From assembly GCA_903827265.1 (NCBI GenBank), contig CAIKHN010000003.1, forward strand, positions 24,392-88,391: DNA of 64,000 nucleotides, written 5' to 3'. Positions 1,475 through 58,928 of this stretch are shown here, piece after piece. A program made the position numbers and the translations under genes. Under the pieces are notes generated by a model. The model did no database searches. It was given only the letters and a program-made list of their open reading frames with translations, and was not told the DNA's origin. The first letter of the stretch is position 1. Every line of letters begins with the position of its first letter. Source of the stretch: Candidatus Uhrbacteria bacterium (GTDB lineage: Bacteria; Patescibacteriota; Patescibacteriia; UBA9934).

Positions 1475-3304
1475 GTGTTCGTTCCGGTGCGGTATACTAG
1501 TGCCATGGATTCATCATTGGTTCGCAAGATGCTTCGTCGCGGTTCCATGCTTGCTGCGGCGGTGCTCATGATTGGGGTGCCGTTCTTCGTTTTTGCTGCA
1601 GACGCAAACCTTTCGTCGGTTGCTTCTACATCAGGACTTGGAACCGACAGTCTCATGACGATTATCGGACGAATCATCAACGTCGTCCTTAGCGTTTTGG
1701 GCGTGATCTTTTTAATTCTCATGGTGTACGCCGGTGCAATCTGGATGACGGCTGGTGGCGACGGTAAGAAGGTCGACAAAGCAAAAGGGATTTTGATCAA
1801 CGCGGTCGTTGGTTTGATCATCACCATGTCGGCGTACGCAATTTCCGTATTCGTTATCAATCTCCTTTCCGATGCAACAGGCGGATCTGGCAACGGAAGC
1901 TCATCCGGAAGTGTTTCGGTCGAGGCCCTTTCAAACTCATTGGGCTCCGGCGTGATCCGCGATCACTATCCTGCTCGTGGAGCAACAGATGTTTCGCGCA
2001 ACACGCGAATCTTTGTGACGTTCCGTGATTCGATGGATCCGTCATCGTTCATTACCGGATATGACACAAATGGCACGCCATCAGATGTTTCTGACGATAC
2101 GTCTGCAACAGCAATTGAGAACAGCAATGTAAAAATCTATGCTCGTGCAAGCGGCGACACTGCGGCGCTTACTGATGTTTCCGTTTCGTTTACGGACGAC
2201 TTAAAAACATTCGTGTTTGACCCAACAGAATATCTCGGCTCTGCAACAGAAGACGTCACGTACGCCGTGTATCTGAGTGATTCCATTAAAAATACTGACG
2301 GCGATACTCCAATCGATTCTGGCGGGTATCTCTGGTACTTCACCACAGGAACAACTGTCGATATCACTCCGCCAACCGTTGAATACGTCATGCCGGCAGA
2401 CGGCACGACGAAAGATCGAAATATCGTTGTACAAGCGGTGTTTAGTGAGGCGATCGATCCAACGTCAGCAACCGGAACGCGTTTAAATGATAGTGGATTC
2501 TCAAATATTCAAATCGTTGGCACGTCATCGACTGCGCCAGTTGCCGGAGAATACGTTATAAGCAACTCGTACAAAACCGTCACATTCACCTCTACCGATG
2601 CGTGCGGAACAAATTCGTGCGGCGAAACCATTTACTGCTTGCCTGGTGGGGAATCGGTAACAGGAACCATCTCTTCCGCGACGCCAACAAGTAGCACCGA
2701 TGCCGCGGCCTCGGTGTTCCCATACGACGGCATCGTCGACACATCCGGTAACGCGCTCGATGGAAATGCAGACGGTTCGGTTGGTACTGATGACGACTAT
2801 TCGTGGGGCTTCACCACAACGAATGACATTAACCTCGATGCGCCGGCTATTGAGAGCATTATTCCAAATATTGAAGAAGAAGACGTTGCGCTCGATCAGC
2901 CGATTCAAATGACATTCGACGGAATCATCGATGCGTCAACAGCAAACTCGTCGAACATTATTGCGACAAATAAGGAAATGACGAGCGGGAAAAGTCATGA
3001 AATGTGGTACTCGTTCAAGGTAACATCGCTGACGTCTGACGGCGAGGAAGTTCTTGTCGCGTCGCAAACGCCAGCAAAATCGCTTGTCACAATTTCCCAC
3101 GGAACGTTCCTTGCATCCGACGCAACGGTGCCGCTGTCATACATGTACGGCATTTCTGCAAACGACGGCGTGCAAAATGAGTATCAAAACTGTTTTGTTC
3201 CAGGCGAAGGACCGGATGCTTCTGGGAATACTTGTGGAACAACAACAGCGGTTCCGTACTGTTGTAATGGTACTGCGCAGGCAGCTGCCTGCACGCTCTT
3301 CTAA
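1475..3304 (+). CDS. Surface protein with N-terminal VirB2/TrbC-like pilin membrane-anchor domain and Ig-like domains
   Basis: 609 aa. Signal peptide ending FAADA, then TM, then WMTAGGDGKKVDKAKGILINAVVGLII, then a second TM; this block is paralogous to the N-terminus of the 3314 gene. The rest is Ser/Thr/Asp-rich beta-type domain sequence. An alternative start is M at 1505. Confidence 0.7.
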   Translation: MFVPVRYTSAMDSSLVRKMLRRGSMLAAAVLMIGVPFFVFAADANLSSVASTSGLGTDSLMTIIGRIINVVLSVLGVIFLILMVYAGAIWMTAGGDGKKVDKAKGILINAVVGLIITMSAYAISVFVINLLSDATGGSGNGSSSGSVSVEALSNSLGSGVIRDHYPARGATDVSRNTRIFVTFRDSMDPSSFITGYDTNGTPSDVSDDTSATAIENSNVKIYARASGDTAALTDVSVSFTDDLKTFVFDPTEYLGSATEDVTYAVYLSDSIKNTDGDTPIDSGGYLWYFTTGTTVDITPPTVEYVMPADGTTKDRNIVVQAVFSEAIDPTSATGTRLNDSGFSNIQIVGTSSTAPVAGEYVISNSYKTVTFTSTDACGTNSCGETIYCLPGGESVTGTISSATPTSSTDAAASVFPYDGIVDTSGNALDGNADGSVGTDDDYSWGFTTTNDINLDAPAIESIIPNIEEEDVALDQPIQMTFDGIIDASTANSSNIIATNKEMTSGKSHEMWYSFKVTSLTSDGEEVLVASQTPAKSLVTISHGTFLASDATVPLSYMYGISANDGVQNEYQNCFVPGEGPDASGNTCGTTTAVPYCCNGTAQAAACTLF

Positions 3305-3313
3305 ACATCTTCT

Positions 3314-6300
3314 GTGAAACGTCGCATTGCAAAACTCTTTGCTACCGGATGCCTCAGCCTTCTTTTGGGCCTTGGGGCATTTGGCGTTCATCCTTCTGCT
3401 GTATTTGCTGCAGATGCAACGACGGACGCGCTTGCAACGGTTGGAGATCAGACGGGGCTGAGCACCACGGATCCAAAAATCATCGTCGGGAACATGATCC
3501 GAACCGGACTTGGCGTTCTCGGCATCATTCTTGTGTGCGTTATTGTGTACGGCGGTTTTGTGTGGATGACTGCTGCTGGCAGGCCAGATCAAGTTGACAA
3601 GGCAAAGAAGATCCTTGTAAACGCGGTCATTGGTTTGATCATCATTCTCTTGTCTTGGAGTATCGCGTCATTTATTGTTTCGTCATTAACGAATGCAACC
3701 GGTACGGGCGGTGGTAACGGTGGCGGCGGTTCGGGTGGAACTGGTGGATACGGCTTAGGCGGCGGAAGCGCGTCGGCATTCACGGTCACTGGCTTCTCTC
3801 CAGATGGCGCGGTGTCAATCCGCAACATTGTGCCGCGAATTACATTCAGTAAGTCTGTCGATAGTGCGACGGTCAATGGAAATGTTTCAATTGCGGACGC
3901 TTCTGGGACTGCGGTCGCTGGAGCATTCGTCGCGACCGGAAATACGGTGAAATTTACGCCGACGGCAACGTGTCCAGAGCCAAATGCAGATCGATTTTGT
4001 TTTGACGAAAGCGCAACATTTACCATCACCGTATCTGCAGGGCTCCTGAGTTCCGGCGGTACGCAGATCTCGTGCAGTACAACGGCGCCATGTACGGCAA
4101 CGTTTACATCAGGTTCTGTTGTCGATACGAAAAATCCTTCTGCAACAATTTCGTATCCTGATGGTACGGTTCCAACGGCATCAACAACAGATTTTCAAGT
4201 TATTGCAACCGACGACGCTGGCGTTTCTACCGGAGACTTCTTTGTTGATGACGAATGGCAGGACACGGTTCCTGGCACTGGTACGGTTGATGAAACGATT
4301 TCAACCATTATCGATACATCAAGTTTTGTTGATGGTACGCGGTACACATTTAAGGCAACGGTAACCGACCTTGCGGGCAACGAGGACTCTGACAGCGTTT
4401 CTGTCCGTGCGAAGCCAGAATGGTGCTACAACGGTGTCGCGGATACAGATCTTGGGGAGACCGGCATTGATTGTGGTGGCGATTCTTCGCTTACAACGTA
4501 TTGTGGCGCTTGTGATGGATCGAGTTGTACCGAAAGCAGTGAATGTTCGAGCGGATCATGTGTGAGCGGCGTTTGCGTGTCGAATCCGGCGATTACGGGA
4601 ATTTCTCCAGAGGATGGCGCTGTTGGAACGTATGTCACGATTTCCGGAACAGACTTTGGTTCAAGCACCGGAACGGTCTTCTTCACTGATGCTGCGGGTA
4701 CTGGAACGGTTGCCGCGAAAGTATTAACGAGTTGCGCTGATGGCTGGAGTGATACGCAAGTGGTTGTTGCGGTTCCATCAGGTGCTGGCGACGGACCAAT
4801 CACGCTCATGAATGGCAACGATGTTTCCGATAGCACGAATGACGACGCTGGCGAGCTGGTTCCGAATTTCGATGTGAACGATACGGTGCACCCAAGCTTG
4901 TGTTCGCTTTCAACATCTTCTGGAACATCAACATCGGCACTGACACTTTCTGGTGCAAATTTTGGCGATTCGCAAGGAACATCAGCGGTTTCCTTCTCTG
5001 CAACGGCTGCAGGATCATATACTTCATGGTCTGGAAGTGCGGTGAAGGTTACAGTTCCTTCTGCAGCGGCTGGCGATTACGATGTTGGCGTAACGGTTGG
5101 CGGCGAAACATCGAATACTCTCGCGTTCTCGCTCACAAAAGCAACGACTGATGCTTCAACGATTACTGATGTGAGTCCGTCAGAGGGCGGCATCGGCCAG
5201 TACGTCACTATCGCGGGAACGAATTTCGGGTCATCCGTTGGAACTGTGACGTTTACAAGCGCTTCCGGCGACACTGCAACAGGAAGCATCGATTTTCCAG
5301 CAGCGTGTAGTAGCGATTATTGGGACGCAGACCAAGTGATCATTATCGTCCCAGAGAAATTCGATAACGGTACTGCGCTGAGTACTGGTTTATACACCAT
5401 ATCGATTACCAATCAAAAAGGCGTGACGTCGTCGTCTGCGGATTTCACGGTAACCGATGCATCGCCTACACCTGGAATTTGTCGCATGACGTCGTCGGCC
5501 GATGTTGGAGATACCGTCACGATTTCTGGTGATCATTTTGCGCTTGCAACGGACACTGTTACGTTTTACAACGGCGTGAAAACATTAACCGCAACATCGT
5601 GGAACAATAGTGCGATTACTGTTGTTGTTCCAGAAGGATCGGTGACCGGTCCAGTAACGGTGACGGTTGCTGGCGTTGAGAGCAACTCTGCAAATTTGAG
5701 CGTTGGTACAACATCGACGTCATCAACATCGACGGTTGCTGCGGCGTATGCGTGGGATTTCTCCACCGGAACTATCGCGCGAGTGCCATCGGTGGTGAGC
5801 GAATGTTCTGCGGATACTGTTTCCGCAGTTCCAAACAGCCGCTATTCTGAACAGGCTGAGATCTGTGTGAATGCTGTCGTGTATGCAGAATTTACGACGC
5901 TCATGAACGAGGCAACGGTGGAAGATGCAATAACAGTTGAGAAGTGTACGGCTTCAGTGAGTAGCACGAGCGACGATCCTTGCGCGACTTCGGAAACGGT
6001 TTCTGGAACAGCGACCGCGGCTTCTGGTTCGTCGTCGACACACGTAACATGGATTCCCGATACTGATTTTTCTTCTGACACCACGTATCGCGTGACGATT
6101 TCTACGGGAGCGCTTTCGGCAGATAGCATTGCGATGGCAGCAGATGCGACATGGAAATTTACGACTTCGACCACAACGGACGCGTGTGTTGTTGATCGCG
6201 TAACGGTGACGCCTTCTGAAGATTCGCTTGCAGTTGATGGCGAAACAGCAGGATTCTCTGCAAACGCAGGAACAGGATGTGTTGTTGTTGATAGCTCCGA

Positions 6301-9300
6301 CTACGCGTGGGATTGGTCGGTTGATTCGTACTCTTATGTCGATTTTTCTTCGACCGCGGATTCGAAGTGCGTTGGCGATCCAACGGCGTGCGCAACACTT
6401 GAGGCGCTTGCCGAAGGAAAAACAACGGTTACCGCAACGGCAATAAACGCCGAAGGATCAGGAAGCGTTTCAGACGGCGCAACGCTTACCGTTAATTTTA
6501 CCGATCCATACATTGCAAGTTACGCCCCAAATTGTACTGAAGCCTGTACGAATGCTTCGGTGTACGCAACGTTTAATACGGCAATGACGGAATCAGACAT
6601 TACGGCGGGGGATCACGTCGTACTGTACGAATGCACCAACGAATTGTGTACAAACCTTACGCGCGTCGATGCAAATCCATCATGTACATTCGATTCGTCA
6701 GACACCGCGCGTTGCACCGGATTCGCATTTAATGCATCAACACTTTCTGCGGGAAAGTACTATCGTGTGGTGGTGTCCGGAGATGTCGCGAGTTCAAGCG
6801 GCGTTGCGCTGATTCGAACAAATTACGGCTCTGATTATTCATGGACCTTCCGTGTTCGTGAAGACGGAACTGCGTGTGCAGTGGAGCGAATCGATCTTTC
6901 TCCAACAAATCCAATCGTTTCTGCAGTTGGCGACGCAACGGCATTTACTGCTGAGGCTTTTGGTGCAGCTGATTCGTGTTCGACGTCTGGTCAGAAGCTT
7001 GCGGGCGCTGATTACAACTGGGGCTGGACCGATCCGATTCCTGATTCTGATCAAAATACTGAAACGACGGGCTACACTGCCGCATGGAGCACGATTTCTG
7101 GATCGCTGTTTGACGGCGGCGGTAGCGCTATCGTTGAGGGGTGTTCGGCATTGTGTACACCAATCGGTAGCTCGCCGTTCCAGGCAATTTGCGGCGATGG
7201 CGTTTTGGATCAAGATGCAGATGGAAGTGGTGAAGAATGCGATGACAGCAATACCACCGATCACGATGGTTGTTCATCGACGTGTTTATTTGAGGGCTCT
7301 GCCGCCTGCGCGATAGCTGGAGTTGGCACGAATTGCTGCGGCAACGGATCGATTGACGTTGCGTACGCAAGCGATGTCGCAGAAAGCTGTGACGACGGCA
7401 ATGTGGTAAACGGCGACGGCTGTTCTTCGACATGTTTAGCGGAAGGCTCTGCATCCGTCGGTGCAACGTGTGGAAATGACGATATTGCATTTGATGCAAC
7501 GACCCACGCTGGAGAGCTTTGTGATGATGGAAATAACGCAAGTGGCGATGGCTGTTCCCGTCAATGTTTGCCTGAAGGATCACGAAGCTTGGCATCGCTT
7601 GGTGGCGCATTGTGTGGCGACGGAACCATTACTTCGCCATACGAAACATGCGACGACGGCAATACCAAAAATGACGATGGCTGTTCTTCGACGTGTGTTC
7701 GCGAAGGATTGGCAGCATGTACTTCGGTGGTAAAAAACAATTGTTGTGGAAACGCGACGGTTGATCAAAATACAATTACTGGAGCGGGTGAGGATTGCGA
7801 TCCTTCCGCTGGCACGGAAGGCTGTACAAGTACGTGTACTTTTGAAGGATCATCTGTTGATTACGCGATGCCGTCAGTTTGTGGCGACGGCGTTGTAGGA
7901 CTTGGTGAATACAGTGCTTGCGAATCATCGAGTGCAACCGGTGACGGCAACGTTGATCCTATTCAGGTTGCATACATGTCGTCTGATGCGGTGAAGGAAG
8001 TAAATCCAACCACGAAAGAAGCGATTGCGACAGTGACGGTTTCCGAATCAACGTCTGGACTGTATGCAACGTCAGACTTTGCCTTAACGTGTGCTGCCTC
8101 GAGTGATCAAGACTGTTCTGACCCTGAAACAACCGGTGTCGGAACCTCGAATTGCTGTGTGGAGCGTCCAACATTAGAATCATCATCGCCGACTGGAGCG
8201 TCAGTTTGCCGAAATGCTGCAATCAATGGCGTGTTCTCTGAAGAAATGAACAAAGGTTCGTTTGCCTTCTCGGAAACATCTGGTTCAACCACCACGACAA
8301 CGCCGTACATGTACGTCAAATTGAATTTGGCGTCAGGACAGAGCTGTCCAAGCGGGTACACCACTCTCGCGGTTGCAAAGACGTCGCTGTTTGGCAGAGT
8401 TGTCGGTACAATCCGAACATTCTTCTTTGGTGAGAATGCCGAGGCCGCTGCAGCTGCTGGCGCTGCCGATTCTGGTGACTGCATTTTGCCAACAGACTCA
8501 TACACGCAAACGGACATGGGAGACGGAACGTTCAAAGTTTCACTCAACTACAGCACTGCGCTTGAGGCTGATTCGTCGTACACGCTGGTGATTGTTGGCG
8601 ACGACGATACGTCAGACGCCGCAACCGAGGGGGTAACGTCGAAACTTGGTGCAGGAATGAATGGCACGCAGTTCGCCACATTCACGACGGGAACCGATAT
8701 TTGTACGCTCGATGTCGTTTCTGTCGACGACACGAACGCTGACAGTCCAAACACATTCACCACAACGAACGAATCGCACACCTTTACTGCAACCCCGATG
8801 TCGTACAGCGGAAGCACCCGTCAGGAAATCACCAGCATTCCTGACGTGTATAGCTGGACATGGTCAGGTTGGAAGAGTAGTGATACCGCACTCTTCACCG
8901 CAACACAGGGCGACGCAACGGCGCTCGATACTGCCGCAGTTGTTGCAGTTGGCGATAACGGAGACGCAACCATCGTCGCAACAGCAACGGTGACCGATTC
9001 AACCGGAACAACGGCGAAAACATCAACAGTCGACGGTGCGGCAGACGTCACGGCACTCTTGTGTGAGGATCCATGGCCGGTGTTGTCGTCGTTCCCATGG
9101 ACTGACGACGGTTTTGGTGACAGTGGCGCAGCAGTTGGAACGAGTGGCTACATGAACTTCGCGGTTGCGTATTGTAAGGATTACGGCACGGATAATGATT
9201 TAACCGATAACTTGCCAGACGTGAAGGTTGTGTTGGCGCCGTCATCTCCGTCGTCAAAAGTCTTGAAGGAATATTTGTTTGAAATCGATCCTTCGTCGTC

Positions 9301-12300
9301 GACAGCATCAATTGGCGATGCGGGCGATGTCGTTGGTGTACGTATTTTGAGCAATGCCGATTACTTGAGCCCAATGGCGTGGTATGAGGCGCAAGGATTC
9401 ACTGGTAGCCCAACCGAAACAACGGTCGATGGATTCCAGGCTGTTACTGACGACCGATCGACGTACGTTGCGATGGCGAACTCCACAACGACGGGATTGT
9501 ATTCGAACATTTTCGTTGTTTCGTATAACGAAGGAGCATCGGATGTCACGAAGGAGGTATACAACCAAATCCTGAAAAACTTGAGTTTCTTAACAAACGT
9601 TACCGATACTCCAGTGTGTAGCGTCACGGCAAGCACGTCATGTTCGAAAGACGCTGACTGTCCGGCGGGCGAAGCATGTTTGGACGACAAAGCGAAAATC
9701 ATGCGCGACACTGCGCGTCTTGGGGATATAAAAGACATCGGCATCGCGGTTGATGCATACAGCGCCGACAACAAGACGTGTAGCAGTACGACGTCGCAAA
9801 GCTGTGATGCTGACAGCGATTGTCCGGGAGATGAAACATGTGAGGTAACGGTTCCTGCATTGTCGTCGGGGACATCGGTGCGGTCATTAGCATCAAGCGC
9901 GTGGAGTTCGTGGCAGGAAACGCTCGGTGGTGCGGTGGATGGCTCTGCACTTCCAACGGATCCGCTGAATACGTACGCGACATGTTCAGGCTATGACGCT
10001 GCAACATGTGTGAACCAAACAAGCGGTTCGTATTCCTGTCCAACCGGATCATTCGTGTATCACTATCGATCGGTTGGCGCTCGCGATTACGAAGTTGCAA
10101 CAGAATTGGAGTACACCGCGTTGTCATGGGTGAATGACGTTGATGCTGACGGCACTGACAACGTGACGTTCTACACGTCTTCCTATTGCGATGGCGATGT
10201 GTACGGTTCATCGAGCACCTGTGGCGATGGGATCATCGGAACGAGCAACAACGGAACATCGGATGACACAACGGATGATTACACCGAAACGTGTGAAATC
10301 GGCCAGGTTCATGCCGAGGCTTGTACAACAACCGACGGCGCAACAGGAACGGCGAATGCAACATGTAATAGCACGTGTACGGGTTACGACGCTGTCCCAT
10401 CTGACGCAGCATGTACGGCAACGTCGTGTGGCGATGGCATTGTGAATGGAGTTGAGGAATGTGACGATGGCGCAAAGAATGGGGAGTACGGCTATTGTGG
10501 TGATTCATGTACGTTCGCAAGCGGATCATATTGTGGCGATGGTGTTATTTCCGGTGGTGAGGCGTGTGATTGTGGCGATTCATCAACAACAGCAACAGCA
10601 AGTTCACGTCCATATGCCGGAAGCGCAGGATCATGTGCCGGATACAACGGAGCATACGATGCCGATCAGCATGCGACGTGTGCCTGGGACTGTACTGGCC
10701 CTGCGAGTTACTGTGGCGATACGACGGTGGATTCTGGCGAGTCATGCGACGGAAATGCCGACGCGTATACCGGAAAGATCTGTGCTGACGGTGTGACGAA
10801 ATGTACGACGGATACGGATTGTGGCGGCGCAACATGTGGAGGATTGCTCAACGGTGAATGTCCGTCGCAAGGCTACTTATGTAACGGCGGAACAAACGAT
10901 GGTTACGTATGTTACTCGCCATCATGGTCAATCGCTGCAAATTACGTTGGCGATTATTTCTGTGAAACACTCGGCGGGGGAACGTGTGAACGAAACGAGC
11001 GATCGTACCAGACGTATCACACACGAACCTGTGACGACGGATCATCAACGTCGATGTGTGGCTGGAACGCATGGGAATACTGCAATGCAAACGGTCAATC
11101 GTGTGGAAATGGCGTGGTTGATGGCGACGAAGAATGTGATGACGGAAATGACGTTGCAACAGATTCGTGTACAACCGCATGTACGGTAAACGTTTGTGGA
11201 GATGGATATTTGTACACGGGTTCAGAAGAATGTGATCAGGGCACGTCAAACGGCGCAGCATGTGACTCCGCCTATGAATCAACGTGCACGGCATGTTCAA
11301 CAACATGTCACTACACGGTGTCTTCCGGTGAATTCTGCGGTGACGGCGTGATTAATGGAACGGAATATTGCGATGGATCCGACGTTCCGTATGTTTGGTA
11401 CAACTATTACTCAAGCACAAATGGTCAACCGGTAAGCCTTGGATCATGTACCGCGGCACAGGCTGGCGATGGATACGTTGACGACATGGGCGGTCCGTAC
11501 ACCTACGTCGATTCTTCCGGAGCGACACAGTCGCTTACACAAATTGTCTGTGCTCAGGTTGGATTGTGTAACGGTGGAACGAATAATGGGGGAGACTGCG
11601 CTTCAGATAGTCAGTGTACGAATGGCGGAGACTGCGTAATGCCGGTGTGTAATGCATCGTGTAGCGCGTCGTGCCCAACGGCTGAAAGCAGTGTGGCGTT
11701 ACTCCTCACCACAAACCAGCCGGGTGCAATTGGTGCAGCGGATGTTGATGTGTACTCTTACAGCAGTTCAAGCTCCTCGAGTCTTCCGAATGCAGCAACG
11801 ATTATGGTTCCAGCGTGTACGGTTGCGGGAAACCTCGTTGCCGACGTGGACTTTAGTAACGTCACGCCTCCTGATGTGTACGTTGCATTCGTTACAGATC
11901 GATCAGGTTCGATGGGAACAAAGGATATGACTGGCGGAGAACAACGTTTGGCGGTTGCTCGCGACAGCATTACATCTGCAATAAAAACGTTGTTTGATGA
12001 ATTGGGCGAAACAGTACAGATCGGTTTGGCGAGCTTCGACTCGACGCTCTACACCTCGACAGCATTCACTACGAACGAACGAACGCTAACGGATGACGTT
12101 GCGGCATATACTGAAATTGGTGGTGGAACGAACACGTATCTTGGATTGAATGAAGCAAAATCCTTATTCGATGCAAAGGCTACTGGTTCGAATGTTGCGA
12201 AGATTGCGATTCTCTTAAGTGATGGTCAGCCATCGGATAGCTCGACGAGCTCGGTTGATGGTGTATCTGGCGCAACCGCATCAGCTGAAGCGCTCATCGC

Positions 12301-12727
12301 CGCAGGATACGAGGTGTATACGATCGCCTTAACGAGTGATTCGACGTTAATCGATAACATGAATGCATGGTCGTCCAACACCGTGTGTGATGCATCGACG
12401 GGGTCATGCACAACTGGTGGGGCATATAACACAAATAATCTTATCGATTACTCGTACGATGGAACATCGACGGCGGCAGTTTCTGGCGCATACGATTCGA
12501 TTGTCGATTCCATCGTGAACGCAACTGCTGCGCTCATCTCGTCGTCTGGCGGCGTCGTAACAGTCGATTCTGGTTCAGTAAGCGATTCGCATAACATCAC
12601 GCTTCCGTGGCCAAGTAACTTCAGCTGTAATGGCGTTAGCGAGCAAGAGGTGCCAATTCAGATTACATTCCGCGGCGAAGGAGAGATTAACGTCAGTAAT
12701 GTGCATATTGATTACTGCGCGCCGTAA
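3314..12727 (+). CDS. Giant (3137 aa) cell-surface protein: VirB2/TrbC-like pilin anchor, Gly-rich linker, Ig/IPT-like domains, about 12 cysteine-rich DUF4215/Myxococcus-type repeats, C-terminal vWA domain
   Basis: The N-terminus WMTAAGRPDQVDKAKKILVNAVIGLIIILL is paralogous to the 1475 gene. Repeats of the form CGDGxxDxxEECDDGNxxxGDGCSSTC recur. The C-terminus has a MIDAS-like DRSGSMG plus ...LLSDGQPSD, typical of von Willebrand A. It is a single uninterrupted ORF. Confidence 0.8.
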   Translation: MKRRIAKLFATGCLSLLLGLGAFGVHPSAVFAADATTDALATVGDQTGLSTTDPKIIVGNMIRTGLGVLGIILVCVIVYGGFVWMTAAGRPDQVDKAKKILVNAVIGLIIILLSWSIASFIVSSLTNATGTGGGNGGGGSGGTGGYGLGGGSASAFTVTGFSPDGAVSIRNIVPRITFSKSVDSATVNGNVSIADASGTAVAGAFVATGNTVKFTPTATCPEPNADRFCFDESATFTITVSAGLLSSGGTQISCSTTAPCTATFTSGSVVDTKNPSATISYPDGTVPTASTTDFQVIATDDAGVSTGDFFVDDEWQDTVPGTGTVDETISTIIDTSSFVDGTRYTFKATVTDLAGNEDSDSVSVRAKPEWCYNGVADTDLGETGIDCGGDSSLTTYCGACDGSSCTESSECSSGSCVSGVCVSNPAITGISPEDGAVGTYVTISGTDFGSSTGTVFFTDAAGTGTVAAKVLTSCADGWSDTQVVVAVPSGAGDGPITLMNGNDVSDSTNDDAGELVPNFDVNDTVHPSLCSLSTSSGTSTSALTLSGANFGDSQGTSAVSFSATAAGSYTSWSGSAVKVTVPSAAAGDYDVGVTVGGETSNTLAFSLTKATTDASTITDVSPSEGGIGQYVTIAGTNFGSSVGTVTFTSASGDTATGSIDFPAACSSDYWDADQVIIIVPEKFDNGTALSTGLYTISITNQKGVTSSSADFTVTDASPTPGICRMTSSADVGDTVTISGDHFALATDTVTFYNGVKTLTATSWNNSAITVVVPEGSVTGPVTVTVAGVESNSANLSVGTTSTSSTSTVAAAYAWDFSTGTIARVPSVVSECSADTVSAVPNSRYSEQAEICVNAVVYAEFTTLMNEATVEDAITVEKCTASVSSTSDDPCATSETVSGTATAASGSSSTHVTWIPDTDFSSDTTYRVTISTGALSADSIAMAADATWKFTTSTTTDACVVDRVTVTPSEDSLAVDGETAGFSANAGTGCVVVDSSDYAWDWSVDSYSYVDFSSTADSKCVGDPTACATLEALAEGKTTVTATAINAEGSGSVSDGATLTVNFTDPYIASYAPNCTEACTNASVYATFNTAMTESDITAGDHVVLYECTNELCTNLTRVDANPSCTFDSSDTARCTGFAFNASTLSAGKYYRVVVSGDVASSSGVALIRTNYGSDYSWTFRVREDGTACAVERIDLSPTNPIVSAVGDATAFTAEAFGAADSCSTSGQKLAGADYNWGWTDPIPDSDQNTETTGYTAAWSTISGSLFDGGGSAIVEGCSALCTPIGSSPFQAICGDGVLDQDADGSGEECDDSNTTDHDGCSSTCLFEGSAACAIAGVGTNCCGNGSIDVAYASDVAESCDDGNVVNGDGCSSTCLAEGSASVGATCGNDDIAFDATTHAGELCDDGNNASGDGCSRQCLPEGSRSLASLGGALCGDGTITSPYETCDDGNTKNDDGCSSTCVREGLAACTSVVKNNCCGNATVDQNTITGAGEDCDPSAGTEGCTSTCTFEGSSVDYAMPSVCGDGVVGLGEYSACESSSATGDGNVDPIQVAYMSSDAVKEVNPTTKEAIATVTVSESTSGLYATSDFALTCAASSDQDCSDPETTGVGTSNCCVERPTLESSSPTGASVCRNAAINGVFSEEMNKGSFAFSETSGSTTTTTPYMYVKLNLASGQSCPSGYTTLAVAKTSLFGRVVGTIRTFFFGENAEAAAAAGAADSGDCILPTDSYTQTDMGDGTFKVSLNYSTALEADSSYTLVIVGDDDTSDAATEGVTSKLGAGMNGTQFATFTTGTDICTLDVVSVDDTNADSPNTFTTTNESHTFTATPMSYSGSTRQEITSIPDVYSWTWSGWKSSDTALFTATQGDATALDTAAVVAVGDNGDATIVATATVTDSTGTTAKTSTVDGAADVTALLCEDPWPVLSSFPWTDDGFGDSGAAVGTSGYMNFAVAYCKDYGTDNDLTDNLPDVKVVLAPSSPSSKVLKEYLFEIDPSSSTASIGDAGDVVGVRILSNADYLSPMAWYEAQGFTGSPTETTVDGFQAVTDDRSTYVAMANSTTTGLYSNIFVVSYNEGASDVTKEVYNQILKNLSFLTNVTDTPVCSVTASTSCSKDADCPAGEACLDDKAKIMRDTARLGDIKDIGIAVDAYSADNKTCSSTTSQSCDADSDCPGDETCEVTVPALSSGTSVRSLASSAWSSWQETLGGAVDGSALPTDPLNTYATCSGYDAATCVNQTSGSYSCPTGSFVYHYRSVGARDYEVATELEYTALSWVNDVDADGTDNVTFYTSSYCDGDVYGSSSTCGDGIIGTSNNGTSDDTTDDYTETCEIGQVHAEACTTTDGATGTANATCNSTCTGYDAVPSDAACTATSCGDGIVNGVEECDDGAKNGEYGYCGDSCTFASGSYCGDGVISGGEACDCGDSSTTATASSRPYAGSAGSCAGYNGAYDADQHATCAWDCTGPASYCGDTTVDSGESCDGNADAYTGKICADGVTKCTTDTDCGGATCGGLLNGECPSQGYLCNGGTNDGYVCYSPSWSIAANYVGDYFCETLGGGTCERNERSYQTYHTRTCDDGSSTSMCGWNAWEYCNANGQSCGNGVVDGDEECDDGNDVATDSCTTACTVNVCGDGYLYTGSEECDQGTSNGAACDSAYESTCTACSTTCHYTVSSGEFCGDGVINGTEYCDGSDVPYVWYNYYSSTNGQPVSLGSCTAAQAGDGYVDDMGGPYTYVDSSGATQSLTQIVCAQVGLCNGGTNNGGDCASDSQCTNGGDCVMPVCNASCSASCPTAESSVALLLTTNQPGAIGAADVDVYSYSSSSSSSLPNAATIMVPACTVAGNLVADVDFSNVTPPDVYVAFVTDRSGSMGTKDMTGGEQRLAVARDSITSAIKTLFDELGETVQIGLASFDSTLYTSTAFTTNERTLTDDVAAYTEIGGGTNTYLGLNEAKSLFDAKATGSNVAKIAILLSDGQPSDSSTSSVDGVSGATASAEALIAAGYEVYTIALTSDSTLIDNMNAWSSNTVCDASTGSCTTGGAYNTNNLIDYSYDGTSTAAVSGAYDSIVDSIVNATAALISSSGGVVTVDSGSVSDSHNITLPWPSNFSCNGVSEQEVPIQITFRGEGEINVSNVHIDYCAP

Positions 12728-12729
12728 CT

Positions 12730-13554
12730 ATGCCAATCGATCCAAACAACCAGAACTACTTCTCCCTCGATGAACAGGCACCTGTTGCTGTTTCGTGGTG
12801 GAAAGAGCGACGATATCAAAAACAGATGCTTGTTGTTGCTGGAATTGTGGTCGGCGTCGGCTTGGTGGGGTATTACGGCTATCAAATGTACAGCTTAACG
12901 CATGTCGATAGCGCAAAAGTAGAGCAGGCGAACACGATGCTTACGAATGCTGCGGCGTCGTGCGCAACGGAATCAGATCCAAAGGCTTGCGAAGATCGTG
13001 CACGAGCTGATGCGGCTCGAACAACGGCGCAACCATCGGTATGTAAAGGGCTTTCCGACACGGCGCTTGCAGATTGCGTTTCATTGATTGCGCATGACAC
13101 CGCCGACGCCAATGCGTGCGATTCGCTTTCTGGTGCTGACGAAACCGCGTGTCGCGATGGCGCAACACTTGCTGCAGCAAATGCGGCGAAGAATTACGGA
13201 TTATGTGCAGCTATTGTTGATACCGATACGAAAGCTGCGTGTCAGAGTCAGTTGCTGAACGCCGTTATCGATGCGGGGCAATGCAGTACGTATAGCATTC
13301 CGCAGGACGTTTGCGACTACCCAAAAACACTCGCCGCAATTATCGCCGCAGGGAATCCTCAAGGGTGCTTGCAGCTCTCGGCCGATCGTCAGGACGGATG
13401 TAGCGACATGTTTTCATCCCTTGATCAGGATCACGATGGCCTCTCGCTTCTTGCGGAGTACAAACTTGGAACATCAGACGTGAAAGCAGATACTGACGGA
13501 GACGGGTATACTGATGGACAGGAGGTTTCCTCGGGACATGATCCGTTAAAATGA
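12730..13554 (+). CDS. Membrane protein with Cys-periodic extracytoplasmic domain and C-terminal TSP3-like Ca-binding repeat
   Basis: 274 aa with a single TM (VVAGIVVGVGLVGYYGY). Cys occurs every 19-20 residues (xxAC pattern). The C-terminus is DQDHDGLS...ADTDGDGYTDGQE, a DxDxDG thrombospondin-type-3-like motif. Confidence 0.6.
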   Translation: MPIDPNNQNYFSLDEQAPVAVSWWKERRYQKQMLVVAGIVVGVGLVGYYGYQMYSLTHVDSAKVEQANTMLTNAAASCATESDPKACEDRARADAARTTAQPSVCKGLSDTALADCVSLIAHDTADANACDSLSGADETACRDGATLAAANAAKNYGLCAAIVDTDTKAACQSQLLNAVIDAGQCSTYSIPQDVCDYPKTLAAIIAAGNPQGCLQLSADRQDGCSDMFSSLDQDHDGLSLLAEYKLGTSDVKADTDGDGYTDGQEVSSGHDPLK

Positions 13555-13561
13555 TATGAGA

Positions 13562-13688
13562 ACGTGGCTAATTTATTTTAGGCCAGTTTCGCCGAAGGAG
13601 GAGAAAAGCTTCCGAGGCGTACTTCATTGGTACGGTGAGGAAGTTTTCGACGAGTGAGGTGAAAATGGACAAAATAAATTAGCCACGT
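13562..13688. repeat. 18-bp perfect inverted repeat (acgtggctaatttatttt / aaaataaattagccacgt) flanking 91 bp, ending at the start codon of the 13689 gene
   Basis: Arms at 13562-13579 and 13671-13688. The ATG follows the right arm immediately. Confidence 0.7.
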
Positions 13689-14366
13689 ATGTTTGATGAA
13701 GAACCGAAAGACATGTTCGAGGGAGTCGATCCTGCCGCTGCGGCCCCAGCCCCAGCACCTGTCGCTGCGCCAGCCGAAGCACAAGCTCCGCAAGCACCAG
13801 CACCAATCGCACCTCCACCAACACGTTTGCCGCCATCATATGGCGCTGCGCCAACTCCTGTGCCGATGCCAATGGAGAGCCGTGGTGGTGGGATGAAGAT
13901 CGTGCTTATCGTTGTTGGAATTTTGGTGATTTTCGGTGTTTCGGGATTTTTTGCGTATCGTATTATGGTTCAGCCGGCATCGGATAGCGGTGTTGTAGAT
14001 GCTGTTCCAAGTACCGGCGTCACAAACACAAAACCAACAACGACGACGCCAGCAACAACTCCTGATTCGACCGCAACAGAAACGCCGTCAACACAAGCTC
14101 CAGTACAAACCACAAATCCTGCGTCGCTTCTTGATAGTGATGGCGACGGCCTCACCAACGCTCGTGAACTTGAGGTTGGAACGTCGGTGACGAAGGCTGA
14201 TACGGACGGTGACGGACTTGGCGACCGTGAAGAAGTTGAGGTGTACGGAACAGATCCACGCAAGCCGGATACTGATGGTGATGGATATTTGGACGGACAG
14301 GAAGTGTCGGGTGGTTATAATCCAAACGGTTCCGGAAAACTCTTTACCGTGCCACAAGGAAGCTAA
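13689..14366 (+). CDS. Pro/Ala-rich single-pass membrane protein with three TSP3-like Ca-binding repeats
   Basis: 225 aa. TM KIVLIVVGILVIFGVSGFFAY, a Thr-rich linker, then DSDGDGLTN...ADTDGDGLGD...PDTDGDGYLDGQE. Confidence 0.6.
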   Translation: MFDEEPKDMFEGVDPAAAAPAPAPVAAPAEAQAPQAPAPIAPPPTRLPPSYGAAPTPVPMPMESRGGGMKIVLIVVGILVIFGVSGFFAYRIMVQPASDSGVVDAVPSTGVTNTKPTTTTPATTPDSTATETPSTQAPVQTTNPASLLDSDGDGLTNARELEVGTSVTKADTDGDGLGDREEVEVYGTDPRKPDTDGDGYLDGQEVSGGYNPNGSGKLFTVPQGS

Positions 14367-14369
14367 ACT

Positions 14370-15344
14370 ATGGGTTTTTTTGGAGGAAAGAAATCAATGC
14401 CGGATGTGTCCTCCGAAGCTGGTATTCCAGTGAAGGAGGAAGACTTGGGCGTGGTAATCCACGTCATGCCGAAGGATTTCTTGGGAAAAGAAGCAAAACT
14501 TCGCGTTGAGCCAGTGCCTGTGTCGGCACCAGTATCGGCGCCGGCCGTACAGTCAGCTGCCGTTCCTCCAAAACCCGTTCCTGCCCCTCTTCCTCCAAAG
14601 CGTCACGTTTCTCCCGCGCTTTTGGTATTGTTCGCGCTCGTTGTTCTTCTTGGTGGTGGTGCCGTTGCGTACGTTATGCTCACGCAGTCGAAGCCGCAGA
14701 CTGTTGTAACGCCGGTGGTTACTACATCCACGTTGCCAACAACAACGCCAGTGAAAACCCCAGTTGTTGAAACCCCGACAGCGCCGGTGCAGTCAAAGGA
14801 CAGCGATAGTGATGGCTTAACCGATATTGAAGAGCGAATGTACGGAACAGATTATCGAAATCCTGATTCAGATGGCGATACGTTCCTTGATGGAAACGAG
14901 GTGTTTCATCGGTACGATCCAAATGGTCTCTCGCCATCGACGTTGCTCGATACAGGAGCGGTGAAGATGTTCACTGATGCGACGCTGCCATTCACTGTGT
15001 ATTACCCAACGAGCTGGAAATCGTCGGTAGATACCGCAAAAGGCACTGTCACATTCAAAACGCCGGCACTTGCAGCTGTTGCAGTGACCTGGGGAGCAAA
15101 AGAAAAGGATTTAACCGTAGAGGATTGGGTACTGAAAAACGTAAAAGATATTGATATTACGACATTAAAATCGTCGTATACGAAAGAAGGGTACTACACG
15201 TTGCGGAGTAAAGATGACCTTGTTGCGTATCTTGATTTAGGCACAATGGCGTATATCATGACGTACAGCTTGAATGGATCAACGGAAATTTCGTACATTC
15301 AGACGTTCGCCATGATGGTAAATAGCTTTCACGTTTCTCCATGA
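14370..15344 (+). CDS. Single-pass membrane protein with TSP3-like repeats and C-terminal globular domain
   Basis: 324 aa. Pro-rich, TM ALLVLFALVVLLGGGAVAYVML, Thr-rich linker, then DSDSDGLTDIEE...PDSDGDTFLDGNE. It is the third member of the same family. Confidence 0.6.
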   Translation: MGFFGGKKSMPDVSSEAGIPVKEEDLGVVIHVMPKDFLGKEAKLRVEPVPVSAPVSAPAVQSAAVPPKPVPAPLPPKRHVSPALLVLFALVVLLGGGAVAYVMLTQSKPQTVVTPVVTTSTLPTTTPVKTPVVETPTAPVQSKDSDSDGLTDIEERMYGTDYRNPDSDGDTFLDGNEVFHRYDPNGLSPSTLLDTGAVKMFTDATLPFTVYYPTSWKSSVDTAKGTVTFKTPALAAVAVTWGAKEKDLTVEDWVLKNVKDIDITTLKSSYTKEGYYTLRSKDDLVAYLDLGTMAYIMTYSLNGSTEISYIQTFAMMVNSFHVSP

Positions 15345-17556: not shown

Positions 17557-17621
17557 ACGTTCGGTAAAAGGTTGATCTTCGCCACGATTTGTGGTGTAAT
17601 TTTTGCGCTCACGGAGTGTTC

Positions 17622-18266
17622 ATGGTCCTCATCTTCGGTCGTTCCTCGTGGATCGGTCTCTTGTTGTCCCTTTTGATCTTTCCGGTCGGCATCTTCTGCG
17701 CCGTGAATCTGGGAACGAAGGATATCCCGTCCTGGCTTCAGAACATCGCGCATCCGGTCGTGGTCGGCGTCATCATGATCTACGGAATCATCACGGGCAC
17801 TTGGGCTGCGGAATACGGAGATATCCGTCGGAAGGAAAAGCTCGAGAGCCGGAACGAGAAAGAAATTCAGTCGTGGCGGGAATGGTGCGAGAACGCCTTT
17901 CCTGAAAATCAGAAGACGGTGGTCGAGGTCGTTGGGCATTTTGTGGAATATAAGGACGCTGATCGTCGAAACTTCCTTTTCTTCGATTGGCTGCGTTATC
18001 GTGCAATGTCGTATTCGGAAAACGGCACGGCAAAGGATAAAAAGTCCCGCCTGGCGTGCATTCACCGAATCATCTGGCTCGCCGAAAGAACCGGACACTG
18101 GCGTTTGATTGCCGATGAGGCAGTCTGGGCGCTGGTGAGTCCTGTGCTCAAGGGCGAGCTCCGCCGTCTGAACAAGACGTGCGCCTCCGACCAGGATTAC
18201 ATGCGACTCATGGAGTGGTTCGCGCACAACGGACCGCCGCCCCAGAAGCAGTCTGCGGCCGTCTAG
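17622..18266 (+). CDS. Hypothetical membrane protein (inserted between ftsA and ftsZ)
   Basis: The ORF track starts it at 17589. I prefer ATG 17622, which is preceded by a GGAG SD and a TTGATC-17-TGTAAT promoter-like site at 17563-17591. It has two N-terminal TMs. Codons are GC3-rich, unlike its neighbours. Confidence 0.5.
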   Translation: MVLIFGRSSWIGLLLSLLIFPVGIFCAVNLGTKDIPSWLQNIAHPVVVGVIMIYGIITGTWAAEYGDIRRKEKLESRNEKEIQSWREWCENAFPENQKTVVEVVGHFVEYKDADRRNFLFFDWLRYRAMSYSENGTAKDKKSRLACIHRIIWLAERTGHWRLIADEAVWALVSPVLKGELRRLNKTCASDQDYMRLMEWFAHNGPPPQKQSAAV

Positions 18267-18286
18267 CCGAGAAAATCCACCGTCAG

Positions 18287-18334
18287 AACGCTGCCCCGCG
18301 GCTCGAAAGAGCTTGCGGGGTGTGTCTTTTTCTG
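18287..18334 (+). terminator. Rho-independent terminator (copy A of a repeated terminator element)
   Basis: Hairpin ccccgcggctc-gaaa-gagcttgcgggg followed by tgtgtctttttctg. Confidence 0.6.
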
Positions 18335-18366
18335 ATGGAATTGCGTCCGCCAACCCAGAGGTACTC

Positions 18367-19080
18367 ATGCGATTCTGTCGCCGTCTCCACTCCTTCATCG
18401 TCCACCCCTCGACTCTCGTCGTTCTCGCGGTCGTCTACGGAGGGATGATCGCGTCGGAAAGCAAGAGCTTTCGTGACCTCACGATCGTCTTCTGTCGGCT
18501 CTTTCGGCCCGATATACTCGACATCGTGTTGCGGGGAGGTCTGTACTTCTTCGCATACGTGTTCCTCACGCAAATTCTGCAGAGCATGACGGACGCCATC
18601 AAGGCGTCTTCTCCAAGGGCGACGGCTCCGGCGTACGCAACGGAGTCTCTCGATGAAGGGTCCTACTGGGATTGGGTGAACGAGCGTCTTGAGCCGTGGC
18701 GTAGCTTCCTCATCCGGTATGGTTCACTCAATCTGTTCCCCGAGGTCTCGAAGCGATTTGGTGAAGAGCTGGATTCGAGCTCGACGCTGCTGACTGCGGC
18801 GAAGCATCAGGATCTCTGGATGATGGAATGGCTCGTCCAGAAGGCGATGACGTTTAGTTCTGACGGATCCGGCGACTTCGAGAACACGAAGGTCTTCGCC
18901 TTCGTGAGTGAGGCGCTGAACATTGCCGACGAGCAGGACGCCTGGCGACAGCTGATGGAAATTCCCAACGCAAAGCCGGTCATCGCTCCAGTGTTCGGTG
19001 CCCTGGTCAAGGATCTTGTCATCGACCGAGGTCCCGGAAGCCAGGCGTACCAGGACTTTGTCGCTTGGCTCGAGTCCTGA
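18367..19080 (+). CDS. Hypothetical protein (inserted between ftsA and ftsZ)
   Basis: The ORF track starts it at 18313, which overlaps the upstream terminator hairpin. ATG 18367 with an AGAGG SD is preferred. No recognisable domain. Codons are GC3-rich. Confidence 0.45.
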   Translation: MRFCRRLHSFIVHPSTLVVLAVVYGGMIASESKSFRDLTIVFCRLFRPDILDIVLRGGLYFFAYVFLTQILQSMTDAIKASSPRATAPAYATESLDEGSYWDWVNERLEPWRSFLIRYGSLNLFPEVSKRFGEELDSSSTLLTAAKHQDLWMMEWLVQKAMTFSSDGSGDFENTKVFAFVSEALNIADEQDAWRQLMEIPNAKPVIAPVFGALVKDLVIDRGPGSQAYQDFVAWLES

Positions 19081-38416: not shown

Positions 38417-38451
38417 CAGGGCAGCGCTCTAACCAGTTGAGCTACCGACCC
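38375..38451 (-). tRNA. tRNA-Asp (anticodon GTC)
   Basis: Reverse complement GGGTCGGTAGCTCAACTGGTTAGAGCGCTGCCCTGTCACGGCAGAGGTTGCGGGTTCGAGTCCCGTCCGTCCCGCCA. It has a cloverleaf, a CTGTCAC anticodon loop and an encoded CCA. It is close to E. coli tRNA-Asp. Confidence 0.85.
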
Positions 38452-48454: not shown

Positions 48455-48853
48455 GGGCCTGACGGGTTTCGATACTCTTCGGATCCTCACAAATCACGCC
48501 GGAAGGGCACCATATTCCGAAATCCCGTGGTGCAACGAGATACTTGCAAACGCATTCTCAAAGGTGAAGGCAGCTATCGCTTCGGCGTTTAGCGTTCCTT
48601 CATTCTCATTGGTTACCGCCTAAGGGCCGCAACCCATCCACTTCGCAATGCCTCATAGCGGAGTTCGGGTGCAATATTATGAGACTATAGGCGTTCTCTT
48701 GTTCGCTCAGAGAACGTAACCCGTTGCAGCGAAATCGTGTCGATGATTCTTGTTCCGTCTTATCATCGCCCCGTACTTGACGGAACTGCGCGTGGAACAA
48801 ATTTGTTTGGTGAGGTGGGGTAGACGAGGGTTCAACTCCCTCCAGGTCCACCA
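48455..48853 (+). ncRNA. ssrA: tmRNA (ssrA)
   Basis: 5' GGGCCUG pairs with 3' CAGGUCC-A-CCA to give a tRNA-Ala-like acceptor stem with G3:U70. T-arm GGGTTCAACTCCC. Length is about 400 nt. smpB is 1.6 kb downstream. Overlapping protein ORFs are rejected. The tag reading frame was not resolved. Confidence 0.65.
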
Positions 48854-58583: not shown

Positions 58584-58928
58584 TCCAAGCCTTCCGCGGC
58601 ACGCGCGGTCGGCTCGCTCACACCTCATCTGGCTTCGGCTGGGTGAGGTGTTCGCATTTGAGAGCACTCGTTCTCTTTTATTTCGAGCAAGTGCATAATT
58701 TTCGACCAGTTTCGGTGCGCGACGAAGGCGGGAGCGTCAAGACGTACGTTGCGGTACGTCGTCGATCACGCCGAGGACGCAAGCCGAAAGTGGGCAAAAT
58801 TATGCGCTTGCTTCTTTACTTTTCCCCAATTTTCCGCTAATATTCCTTGTCCCTCAAGTGGGGGAATGACACACTGTCATTAGGCCACCTGGCCTCACGT
58901 TCCTGAAACCTTCCCGTTCGGAGTTCCC

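Follow-up and report, generated by a model that had tools for sequence, protein, structure and literature searches.

The window analyzed here is a stretch of 64,000 nt from a Candidatus Uhrbacteria bacterium (Patescibacteria, class ABY1; contig CAIKHN010000003.1 of assembly GCA_903827265.1, positions 24,392 to 88,391 of the forward strand), and all coordinates of this genome given below are positions within it. Patescibacteria represent a large share of bacterial diversity and, to our knowledge, every cultivated member lives attached to host cells. The subject of the analysis is a pair of adjacent genes on the plus strand, termed open reading frame (ORF) A and ORF B, which encode proteins of 599 aa and 3137 aa, respectively, both with a VirB2-like pilin head. 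ORF A, which combines this head with a rod of immunoglobulin (Ig)-like domains and has more than 120 orthologue clusters, extends from 1505 to 3304 and starts with ATG. The mechanical ORF call began at the GTG at position 1475 (609 aa); the ATG at 1505 is taken as the start because the 599-aa orthologues begin at that Met. ORF B, a candidate giant adhesin with 43 colinear full-length orthologues, extends from 3314 to 12727 and starts with GTG. The stop codon of A and the start codon of B are separated by 9 nt, and 2 nt lie between the stop codon of B and the start of the next gene, ORF C. Scans of the locus for promoters and terminators yielded matches at chance level only.

The two N-termini follow the same plan. 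Behind a basic N-region comes a hydrophobic signal peptide whose last residues read V-F-A|A-D-A, and then an acidic tail, a first helix that ends in W-M-T-A-G/A-G, a short Lys-rich loop (VDKAK), a second helix of the pattern IL.NAV.GLII... and a Gly/Ser linker. In ORF A the signal peptide (1505..1597) is predicted to be cut by signal peptidase I (SPase I) after V-F-A31, the hairpin covers residues ~47-125 (1643..1879) and the loop joining its two helices reads WMTAGGDGKKVDKAK. In ORF B the cut is predicted after V-F-A32 of the signal peptide (3314..3409, hydrophobic residues 5-32), the hairpin covers residues 54-128 (3473..3697), and a flexible Gly-rich linker is formed by residues 129-153 (3698..3772). 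The heads share 44% identity over 86 residues in BLASTP (E 1e-22), so their resemblance is not due to chance and they can be regarded as paralogous. Both had been described in an earlier note, made from the sequence alone, as paralogous pilin-like N-termini of two surface proteins; the two ORFs exist, and the strings FAADA, WMTAGG/WMTAAG and VDKAK.IL.NAV.GLII cited there are present in both translations. Moreover, as the earlier note proposed, the N-termini are more than ordinary Sec signal peptides, since the signal peptide is followed by a module that reaches the Pfam threshold of T4SS_pilin (PF18895; T4SS, type IV secretion system). The scores were 31.1-35 bits for A (35 bits at residues 47-116) and 36.6-43.4 bits for B (43 bits for the hairpin) at a gathering threshold of 26.6, and the family was matched by 38/38 members of the head alignment A2. 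Judged by sequence, the heads of A and B are thus members of PF18895.

Each N-terminus contains three hydrophobic segments, namely the signal peptide (residues 12-37 in A) and two transmembrane (TM) helices. A hydropathy and charge count gave a net charge of +2 for the inter-helix loop, while the mature N-tail and the linker after helix 2 are acidic or neutral. The positive-inside rule assigns a basic loop to the cytoplasmic side; together with the acidic flanks this points to an N-out/C-out hairpin once the signal peptide has been removed, which would place every downstream domain outside the cell. The N-out/C-out hairpin is the known topology of VirB2-type pilins. The AlphaFold check of the N-terminus that had been proposed gave a two-helix hairpin: in the 139-residue AlphaFold2 model of the B head, helices 54-86 and 91-128 have pLDDT >90, and values below 50 occur in the linker at 136-139, the C-terminal end of the model. 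Full-length A was modelled with a pLDDT of 86 and a pTM of 0.73, with helices 50-82 and 87-125 at pLDDT ~79-86 and a disordered linker at 124-136. A31 is invariant in 17 A orthologues and nearly invariant in 109 A sequences; in the latter set W80, M81 and G103 are invariant, and the hairpin as a whole has 7 invariant and ~15 near-invariant positions.

Two other routes to the surface were considered and rejected. Sortase anchoring was discarded since the LPx[TSA]G motif is absent anywhere in A or B, which end in ...ACTLF and ...IDYCAP, respectively. Type IV prepilin processing was discarded because the class III prepilin-peptidase motif G|[FM]TLxE is absent from the first 60 residues of both proteins, in which the SPase I-type V-F-A site is found instead.

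The best matches of the heads are small stand-alone pilins. Every position conserved among 36 small PF18895 proteins of the stand-alone type, with the consensus YGGF.WMTA.GNE..V.KAKKII..A.IGLIIIL, is also present in the heads, and the best small-pilin matches to the B head are 35-55% identical and 90-219 aa long. With 599 and 3137 aa, A and B are unlike these stand-alone proteins, which usually have about 100-200 aa. In hhalign comparisons the head profile matched Agrobacterium VirB2 with a probability of 51% when one sequence and 44% when four sequences were used (E ~2e-4); the VirB2 query sequence had been checked against annotated Ti plasmids and was 99% identical. This alignment is in register: TDP precedes helix 1, W-M closes it, and the A and B heads have 8 additional residues in the loop. 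The controls, an ATP-synthase c-subunit hairpin and the F-pilin TraA, reached 0.1%. The mycoplasma pilin-like family NF045849 of integrative and conjugative elements (ICE) gave sub-threshold matches of 24.9 and 29.4 bits (cut-off 40 bits) that nearly span the profile, as the heads cover positions 6-78 and 17-78 of 80. PF04956 (TrbC) did not match the heads of A or B themselves, and a search of PDB sequences with the head profile returned only spurious repeat matches to designed 'Pizza' proteins and no solved pilin. The VirB2/TrbC likeness claimed from the sequence alone is plausible in view of the in-register hhalign match and its controls, while the TrbC profile is not matched and the fold search is not diagnostic.

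The ectodomain of A (residues 145-599, 1937..3301) consists of tandem Big_5 domains (PF13205), found in three stretches above the Pfam gathering threshold, and a conserved Cys-rich C-terminal cap ending in C-x-L-F. It was modelled by AlphaFold2 as all-beta with pLDDT >90, and invariant Cys residues and motifs were found in it in both the 17- and the 109-sequence alignments. Foldseek matched it to tandem bacterial Ig domains (LdtMt2, E 3e-9; SbsC, 2e-7) as well as to titin and cadherins; since all matches are to tandem Ig-like domains, the A ectodomain appears to be a generic Ig rod.

In B, Big_5, TIG (four stretches), DUF4215 and VWA domains were found above the Pfam gathering thresholds, and the metal ion-dependent adhesion site (MIDAS) residues are intact, which confirms the domain content previously read from the 3137-aa protein (Ig/IPT, DUF4215 and a C-terminal vWA/MIDAS). 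The proximal stalk (3776..6166) is composed of a Big_5 domain at residues 155-250, a Cys-rich knot at ~370-425, four TIG/IPT domains at 420-810, matched in the PDB by Ig-like domains of CGTases, and a second Big_5 domain at 847-951. A first cluster of Cys-rich acidic repeats of the DUF4215/TIGR02232 type follows at residues 1290-1560 (7181..7993; PF13948, 59 bits; TIGR02232, 105 bits in 5 stretches). The conserved middle region (residues 1880-2330, 8951..10303) has 51 invariant columns and belongs to no recognisable family, a 20-sequence profile having found no match in Pfam or the PDB, which leaves it without an assignable enzymatic role. The second Cys-rich/DUF4215 region (residues 2300-2800, 10211..11713) is hypervariable and prone to insertions at 2501-2600 and 2701-2800. 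The vWA domain (residues 2857-3009, 11882..12340) was detected by PF00092 with 49.5-54.2 bits (threshold 23.8) and by PF13519 with 47-51 bits, and contains the complete MIDAS set, with D2862, S2864 and S2866 in the motif D2862-R-S-G-S followed by T2939 and D2970. A C-terminal domain without family match (residues 3010-3137, 12341..12724) completes the protein. The ectodomain contains 140 Cys and is strongly acidic (D+E 12% vs K+R 3%), both of which are consistent with an extracytoplasmic fibre.

For the analysis of the distribution of the pair, at least 365 relatives of A were found, with details taken from the best 120 clusters. The proteins of these clusters have 566-633 aa and are 51-95% identical, and PF18895 and PF13205 are both recorded in all but two; a few relatives are named 'pilin' or 'Ig-like domain-containing protein' (Patescibacteria, Parcubacteria, Uhrbacteria). 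In a scan of one genome per species, an A relative was present in 124 species, 80 of which were fetched; by title these are mostly Candidatus Uhrbacteria or Patescibacteria, and they reach Komeilibacteria at 34% identity. Subsequently, every ORF of 85 loci was scanned with a custom pilin hidden Markov model (HMM). An A-type gene is present in 85/85 loci and a B-type giant stands next to it wherever the sequence runs beyond A. The B-type proteins usually have 3056-3361 aa; ten loci, among them the most distant, have shorter versions of 777-2678 aa. The gene order hflX-A-B-C-D-E-ybeY-dgkA-ftsA extends unchanged to the most distant loci. This conserved position beside hflX, ybeY, dgkA and ftsA indicates a housekeeping neighbourhood and not a mobile element. 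In five distant loci a small stand-alone pilin of 114-189 aa is encoded between the A-type and the B-type gene (L061, 11775-12278; L065, 2871-3425; L067, 11608-12123; L076, 4991-5560; L078, 11775-12119, each in the coordinates of its locus), while the HMM scan found no pilin ORF in the window besides A and B. In 159/175 cases a head has its nearest neighbour from other loci among heads of its own type (A or B), and the exceptions are for the most part partial genes with a wrong label. The A and B heads therefore form separate orthologous groups, which implies that the duplication is old and that both copies have been kept. A strictly conserved core-genome cassette, a short partner A that is the better conserved one, and three TSP3 membrane proteins accompanying the pair were observed beyond what the earlier note contained.

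It was also observed that the A-B pair occurs in many species-representative records named 'uncultured Gammaproteobacteria bacterium' (L006, L012, L014, L016-L021 and others). They carry the Uhrbacteria-type arrangement hflX-A-B at 50-95% identity, and the label is apparently a placeholder or wrong.

Sequence conservation is distributed unevenly along the two proteins. The 43 full-length B orthologues (3056-3361 aa) align colinearly and share 45% identity on average. Relative to this mean of 0.45, the best-kept blocks include the hairpin (0.58), the Cys knot with the first TIG domain (~0.6), the DUF4215 clusters (0.59-0.66) and the block 2001-2050 (0.60); at the C-terminal end (3101-3137) conservation rises again to 0.50. 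A has a mean column identity of 52% over 109 sequences and is more conserved than B in every same-genome pair, e.g. 0.85 vs 0.71 and 0.52 vs 0.43. When B was compared with its relative in locus L001 (mean identity 0.71), most windows of 100 residues were 0.7-0.8 identical; low values were found at 2501-2600 (0.49), at 2701-2800 (0.42) and at 2901-3000, the core of the vWA domain and the fastest-diverging part (0.36). The metal site within this domain is largely retained: among the 43 orthologues D2862 is present in 43, S2864 in 39, S2866 in 34 (with Thr in 7 more), T2939 in 35 and D2970 in 35. A stable stalk and a stable metal site combined with a fast-changing face form the pattern expected of an adhesin with a varying target.

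The module has a much wider distribution than the pair. An exhaustive profile search found PF18895-type modules in 86,146 cluster representatives. About 20 of the best 150 representatives are giants of 1.9-4.7 thousand residues with the module at residues 1-140, and BLASTP against B identified pilin-headed giants as distant colinear homologues (24-34% identity, ~40-85% of B covered). Both the number of giants among the best 150 and the colinearity with B indicate that pilin-headed giants are a large family, so the PF18895 module is not confined to small pilins. The same search space contains 'poly-pilin' proteins with 2-17 tandem PF18895 hairpins per chain, e.g. P0160 (552 aa), P0209 (1775 aa) and ~100 others; P0160 looks like a genuine 12-TM protein and not like a merged gene call, as internal signal peptides are absent.

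The literature on pilins of Patescibacteria provides the context for the pair. An MPF-FATA-like T4SS (MPF, mating pair formation) and small-pilin arrays of 2-11 genes have been described (PMC10633639, PMC12102498, PMC12857230), and a genome survey did not detect adhesins (PMC10633639, PMC12102498). VirB2-like pilins were reported in 1948 assemblies and lie near virB4 in 1135 of them (PMC12102498); with 1135/1948 assemblies only, adjacency to virB4 is not a strict trait of the family. In Ca. Southlakia epibionticum, the one species tested, a six-pilin array and the T4SS are essential (PMC10633639). Small pilins akin to the B head form arrays of 6-8, which in the two cases viewed lie away from virB4. 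Of the two Uhrbacteria genomes listed in the PMC12102498 supplement, one carries VirB3-VirB4-TrsD as genes 2-4, with a VirB2 hit at gene 584. Ultra-small groundwater cells bear pili-like appendages that extend into hosts, and periodic surface layers are visible on them (PMC7906910). The description of the heads as an anchor known from CPR-like bacteria (CPR, candidate phyla radiation) is accordingly correct for small VirB2-like pilins, but the literature describes arrays of small pilins and no adhesins, and giant pilin fusions are unmentioned in the searchable papers on Patescibacteria pilins (PMC10633639, PMC12102498, PMC12857230). Giant adhesins headed by a conjugative-type pilin, the obligate pairing of A and B, the class-wide core position and the family size thus appear to be new with respect to the searchable literature, while all individual domains are already known and the proteins are present in public databases under generic names.

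Taken together, A and B are probably co-functioning modular VirB2-like pilins that display an adhesive surface fibre on the Uhrbacteria cell, as far as can be judged from sequence and predicted structure. From the observed sequence features, domain content, topology argument, conservation, synteny and divergence pattern we infer export, surface display, pairing of A with B, adhesion and any polymerisation of the two proteins. Both would be exported by Sec, with the signal peptide cut at V-F-A, and the two-helix module would insert in the membrane with its Lys-rich loop (WMTAGG..VDKAK) in the cytoplasm and both ends facing outward, so that all residues past the Gly/Ser linker would lie outside the cell. 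In B, ~3000 residues made up of Ig-like, TIG and Cys-repeat modules rich in disulfides would then form a fibre of the order of 100 nm, whose terminal vWA MIDAS would bind, in a metal-dependent manner, a ligand carried by another cell, with a distal face that varies by species on a conserved stalk and head. A, short and very conserved, would be an Ig rod of four domains on a like head that most likely pairs with B via the hairpins, as base or adaptor. The heads might be handled like small pilins, being either extracted and set into a VirB2-type filament, at its tip or its base, by an unlinked T4SS, or kept in the membrane, where they would pack against other hairpins. Within this model it is probable that the head packs against further hairpins, and the pilin-assembly pathway may act on it; its incorporation into a pilus is doubtful.

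Several observations weigh against this model. Homology of the heads to VirB2 proper is plausible from the sequence comparison, and the similarity is modest. F-pilin is without similarity to the heads. PF04956 was found in only 7/38 relatives, weakly and with a best value of 1e-4, which is the level of noise obtained from unrelated membrane families. A Foldseek search of the hairpin against the PDB gave no match at E <0.001 and no solved pilin, helical hairpins being poorly discriminating. Among the genes that were examined across the 64-kb window there is no T4SS component, VirB4, VirB6 and coupling protein included, and the gene tables read for four loci list no T4SS gene within +/-10 kb of the pair, the scan of the remaining loci having covered the A-B pair and its syntenic neighbours only. 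One Uhrbacteria draft contains two adjacent CONJScan T_virB2 hits (genes 552 and 553), which in themselves count for the model, while VirB4 was not called (PMC12102498 supplement). These hits may be A and B and would be consistent with the pair having been counted as an unlinked two-gene 'array'. Furthermore, the colinearity of B and its identity of 45% throughout the clade are above those of typical host-range adhesins. Finally, a cargo of 3000 residues per subunit cannot be packed along a VirB2-type filament, which leaves tip, base or sparse incorporation at most. The host-attachment organelle suggested in the earlier note is in this respect upheld only in part: the vWA/MIDAS tip, the Uhrbacteria origin and the domain content fit, but T4SS genes were not found near the pair.

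Part of this evidence would equally be explained if the head were a membrane anchor only. The PF18895 hairpin would then hold giant ectodomains N-out/C-out on the cytoplasmic membrane of a monoderm cell without the help of sortase, with neither a filament nor a T4SS involved, and A and B would be cell-bound adhesins or spacers. The unlinked T4SS genes, the draft with two adjacent VirB2 hits and no VirB4 call, the absence of LPxTG and other anchors from A and B, and a hairpin fold search that is not diagnostic of a pilin all agree with this, as does the cargo, which would be sterically hard to pack in a filament; likewise, a family of 86,146 representatives including chains of up to 17 hairpins is membrane-protein-like as much as filament-subunit-like. 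However, few parts are as well conserved as the hairpin, and its invariant Gly, Trp and Lys are those of free small pilins, which would be needless for a passive anchor; in addition, small pilins lie inside the A-B locus of five species. Other surface proteins of the window have ordinary single TM anchors; as this includes the other giant, of 2476 aa, the pilin head is not the default anchor. The strong pilin-type conservation and the single-TM anchors on C, D, E and the 2476-aa giant together suggest that the head does more than anchor, and we consider a purely anchoring role rather unlikely.

An S-layer-like or envelope scaffold, in which A, B and the TSP3 proteins C-E would form a constitutive layer or fibril lattice with a structural and perhaps division-tied role, would account for the class-wide core position between hflX and ybeY-dgkA-ftsA-ftsZ, for the strong conservation seen in A (52%) and in the stalk of B, and for strongly acidic ectodomains next to Ca-binding repeats; periodic surface layers on ultra-small cells (PMC7906910) and the Foldseek matches of A with SbsC and EA1, both S-layer proteins, point the same way. 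The latter matches, however, are of the generic tandem Ig type with TM-scores of 0.09-0.16, a terminal vWA domain with conserved MIDAS and hypervariable face is typical of adhesins and not of lattices, and a monomer of 3137 aa is atypical for an S-layer, which makes a scaffold very improbable. An annotation artefact, i.e. a small pilin gene falsely fused to a giant gene by an assembly or frameshift error, might be suspected from the shorter or split versions in a few loci (L020, L029, L034, L036). This is refuted by the recurrence across independent assemblies, where the unbroken fusion with its Gly-rich linker is found in 43 full-length B and 80 A proteins and also in the giants of 1.9-4.7 thousand residues, so that the chance of an artefact is practically negligible.

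The model of paired, adhesive pilin-headed proteins can be compared with several known systems. The small PF18895 pilins of Patescibacteria, such as the array of Ca. Southlakia epibionticum (PMC10633639, PMC12102498, PMC12857230), resemble the A and B heads in family, layout, motif and phylum; they have 90-220 aa and occur in arrays of 2-11, often near virB4, whereas A and B are a fixed pair with a giant member at a housekeeping site far from T4SS genes. Agrobacterium VirB2 and RP4 TrbC (PF04956) share the long signal peptide, two hydrophobic helices, the short basic loop and the N-out/C-out topology predicted for A and B, and A and B differ by scores below the PF04956 threshold, the loop longer by 8 residues and the giant C-terminal extension; they show no sign of cyclisation, of a T4SS partner or of a VirB5-type tip protein. 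The mycoplasma ICE family Mbov_0395 (NF045849), with a profile nearly fully covered by both heads, links the module to MPF-FATA-type conjugation of monoderms, although its members are small, unlike A and B, which score below the cut-off. At the level of design, the closest parallel is the modular type IV pilin PilB of Streptococcus sanguinis (PMC8179133), also from a monoderm, in which a pilin module is joined by a short linker to a vWA domain with MIDAS. Modelling placed PilB most probably at the pilus tip, and RrgA of sortase pili was noted as convergent (PMC8179133). PilB belongs to an unrelated pilin superfamily; A and B have no class III signal peptide, their cargo is 6 to 30 times larger and no assembly machinery was identified for them. 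By analogy, A and B would be the PilB design on a third, unrelated pilin scaffold. RrgA (PMC8179133) and the PrgB-type adhesins of Gram-positive T4SS also share an Ig-like stalk with vWA/MIDAS or another adhesive head, a monoderm cell and a role, for A and B a proposed one, in cell-cell contact, but A and B lack LPxTG and carry an N-terminal pilin-like anchor instead, and PrgB homologues have not been reported in Patescibacteria. The Myxococcus proteins CglD and MtsD (TIGR02232) have a shared vocabulary of domains (myxo_disulf_rpt with 105 bits in B, TSP3 in C-E, and vWA); this similarity is at domain level only, far below the equivalog cut-offs, and organism, anchoring and context differ.

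A further-reaching version of the model is that the A-B pair is the missing adhesin and tip complex of the Patescibacteria T4SS-type pilus, with B capping or nucleating a filament of small pilins, which is possible but unlikely. If true, it would be the third independent adhesive pilin of the 'pilin module plus vWA' type after type IV and sortase pili, and the first on a VirB2-type subunit. The ~100 nm fibre would set a variable MIDAS head on the host envelope, the essential T4SS of episymbionts would be an attachment and feeding organelle in one, and host specificity could be read from the hypervariable vWA face. More generally, the A-B pair is a concrete candidate for the attachment device of these bacteria, its vWA face may offer a sequence handle for host-range prediction in uncultivated lineages, and the modular-pilin principle would extend from type IV pili to conjugative-type pilins.

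Around the pair, hflX lies upstream of ORF A (378-1469) and three genes for TSP3 Ca-binding single-TM proteins follow ORF B on the plus strand (12730-15344) and travel with A-B across the clade. ORF C (12730..13554) encodes 274 aa with a single N-in TM helix, an ectodomain rich in Cys and a TSP3 repeat, ORF D (13689..14366) encodes 225 aa with a single TM helix and three TSP3 Ca-binding repeats, and ORF E (14370..15344) encodes 324 aa with a single TM helix, a TSP3-like motif and a C-terminal domain without known family. The TSP3 protein C follows B in most loci that reach far enough, and D is syntenic in the distant loci L064, L071, L082 and L085. Two ORFs of 225 and 255 aa without family match are located between ftsA and ftsZ (17589-19080).

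Other regions of the window contain features of their own. The segment 27254-38451 has a low GC content of 0.42-0.46 vs ~0.51 and carries a gene for a 1970-aa protein with a Cap4 nuclease and a NACHT/STAND ATPase (27254-33166, minus strand) as well as a large serine recombinase (36779-38416) that abuts a tRNA-Asp gene (38375-38451). This segment looks like an integrated anti-phage defence island. The second giant, of 2476 aa (39299-46729; DUF7483, MG2, SH3_3), has a single N-terminal TM anchor after ~100 cytoplasmic residues and no pilin head. Between 56000 and 61300 the GC content rises to 0.59-0.63. A secreted protein of 774 aa (58929-61253) contains nine MopE-type putative metal-binding motifs, and a long antisense ORF (58854-60929) without family match is probably a shadow ORF. 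A tmRNA gene is located at 48455-48853 and encodes the tag peptide ANAFSKVKAAIASAFSVPSFSLVTA.

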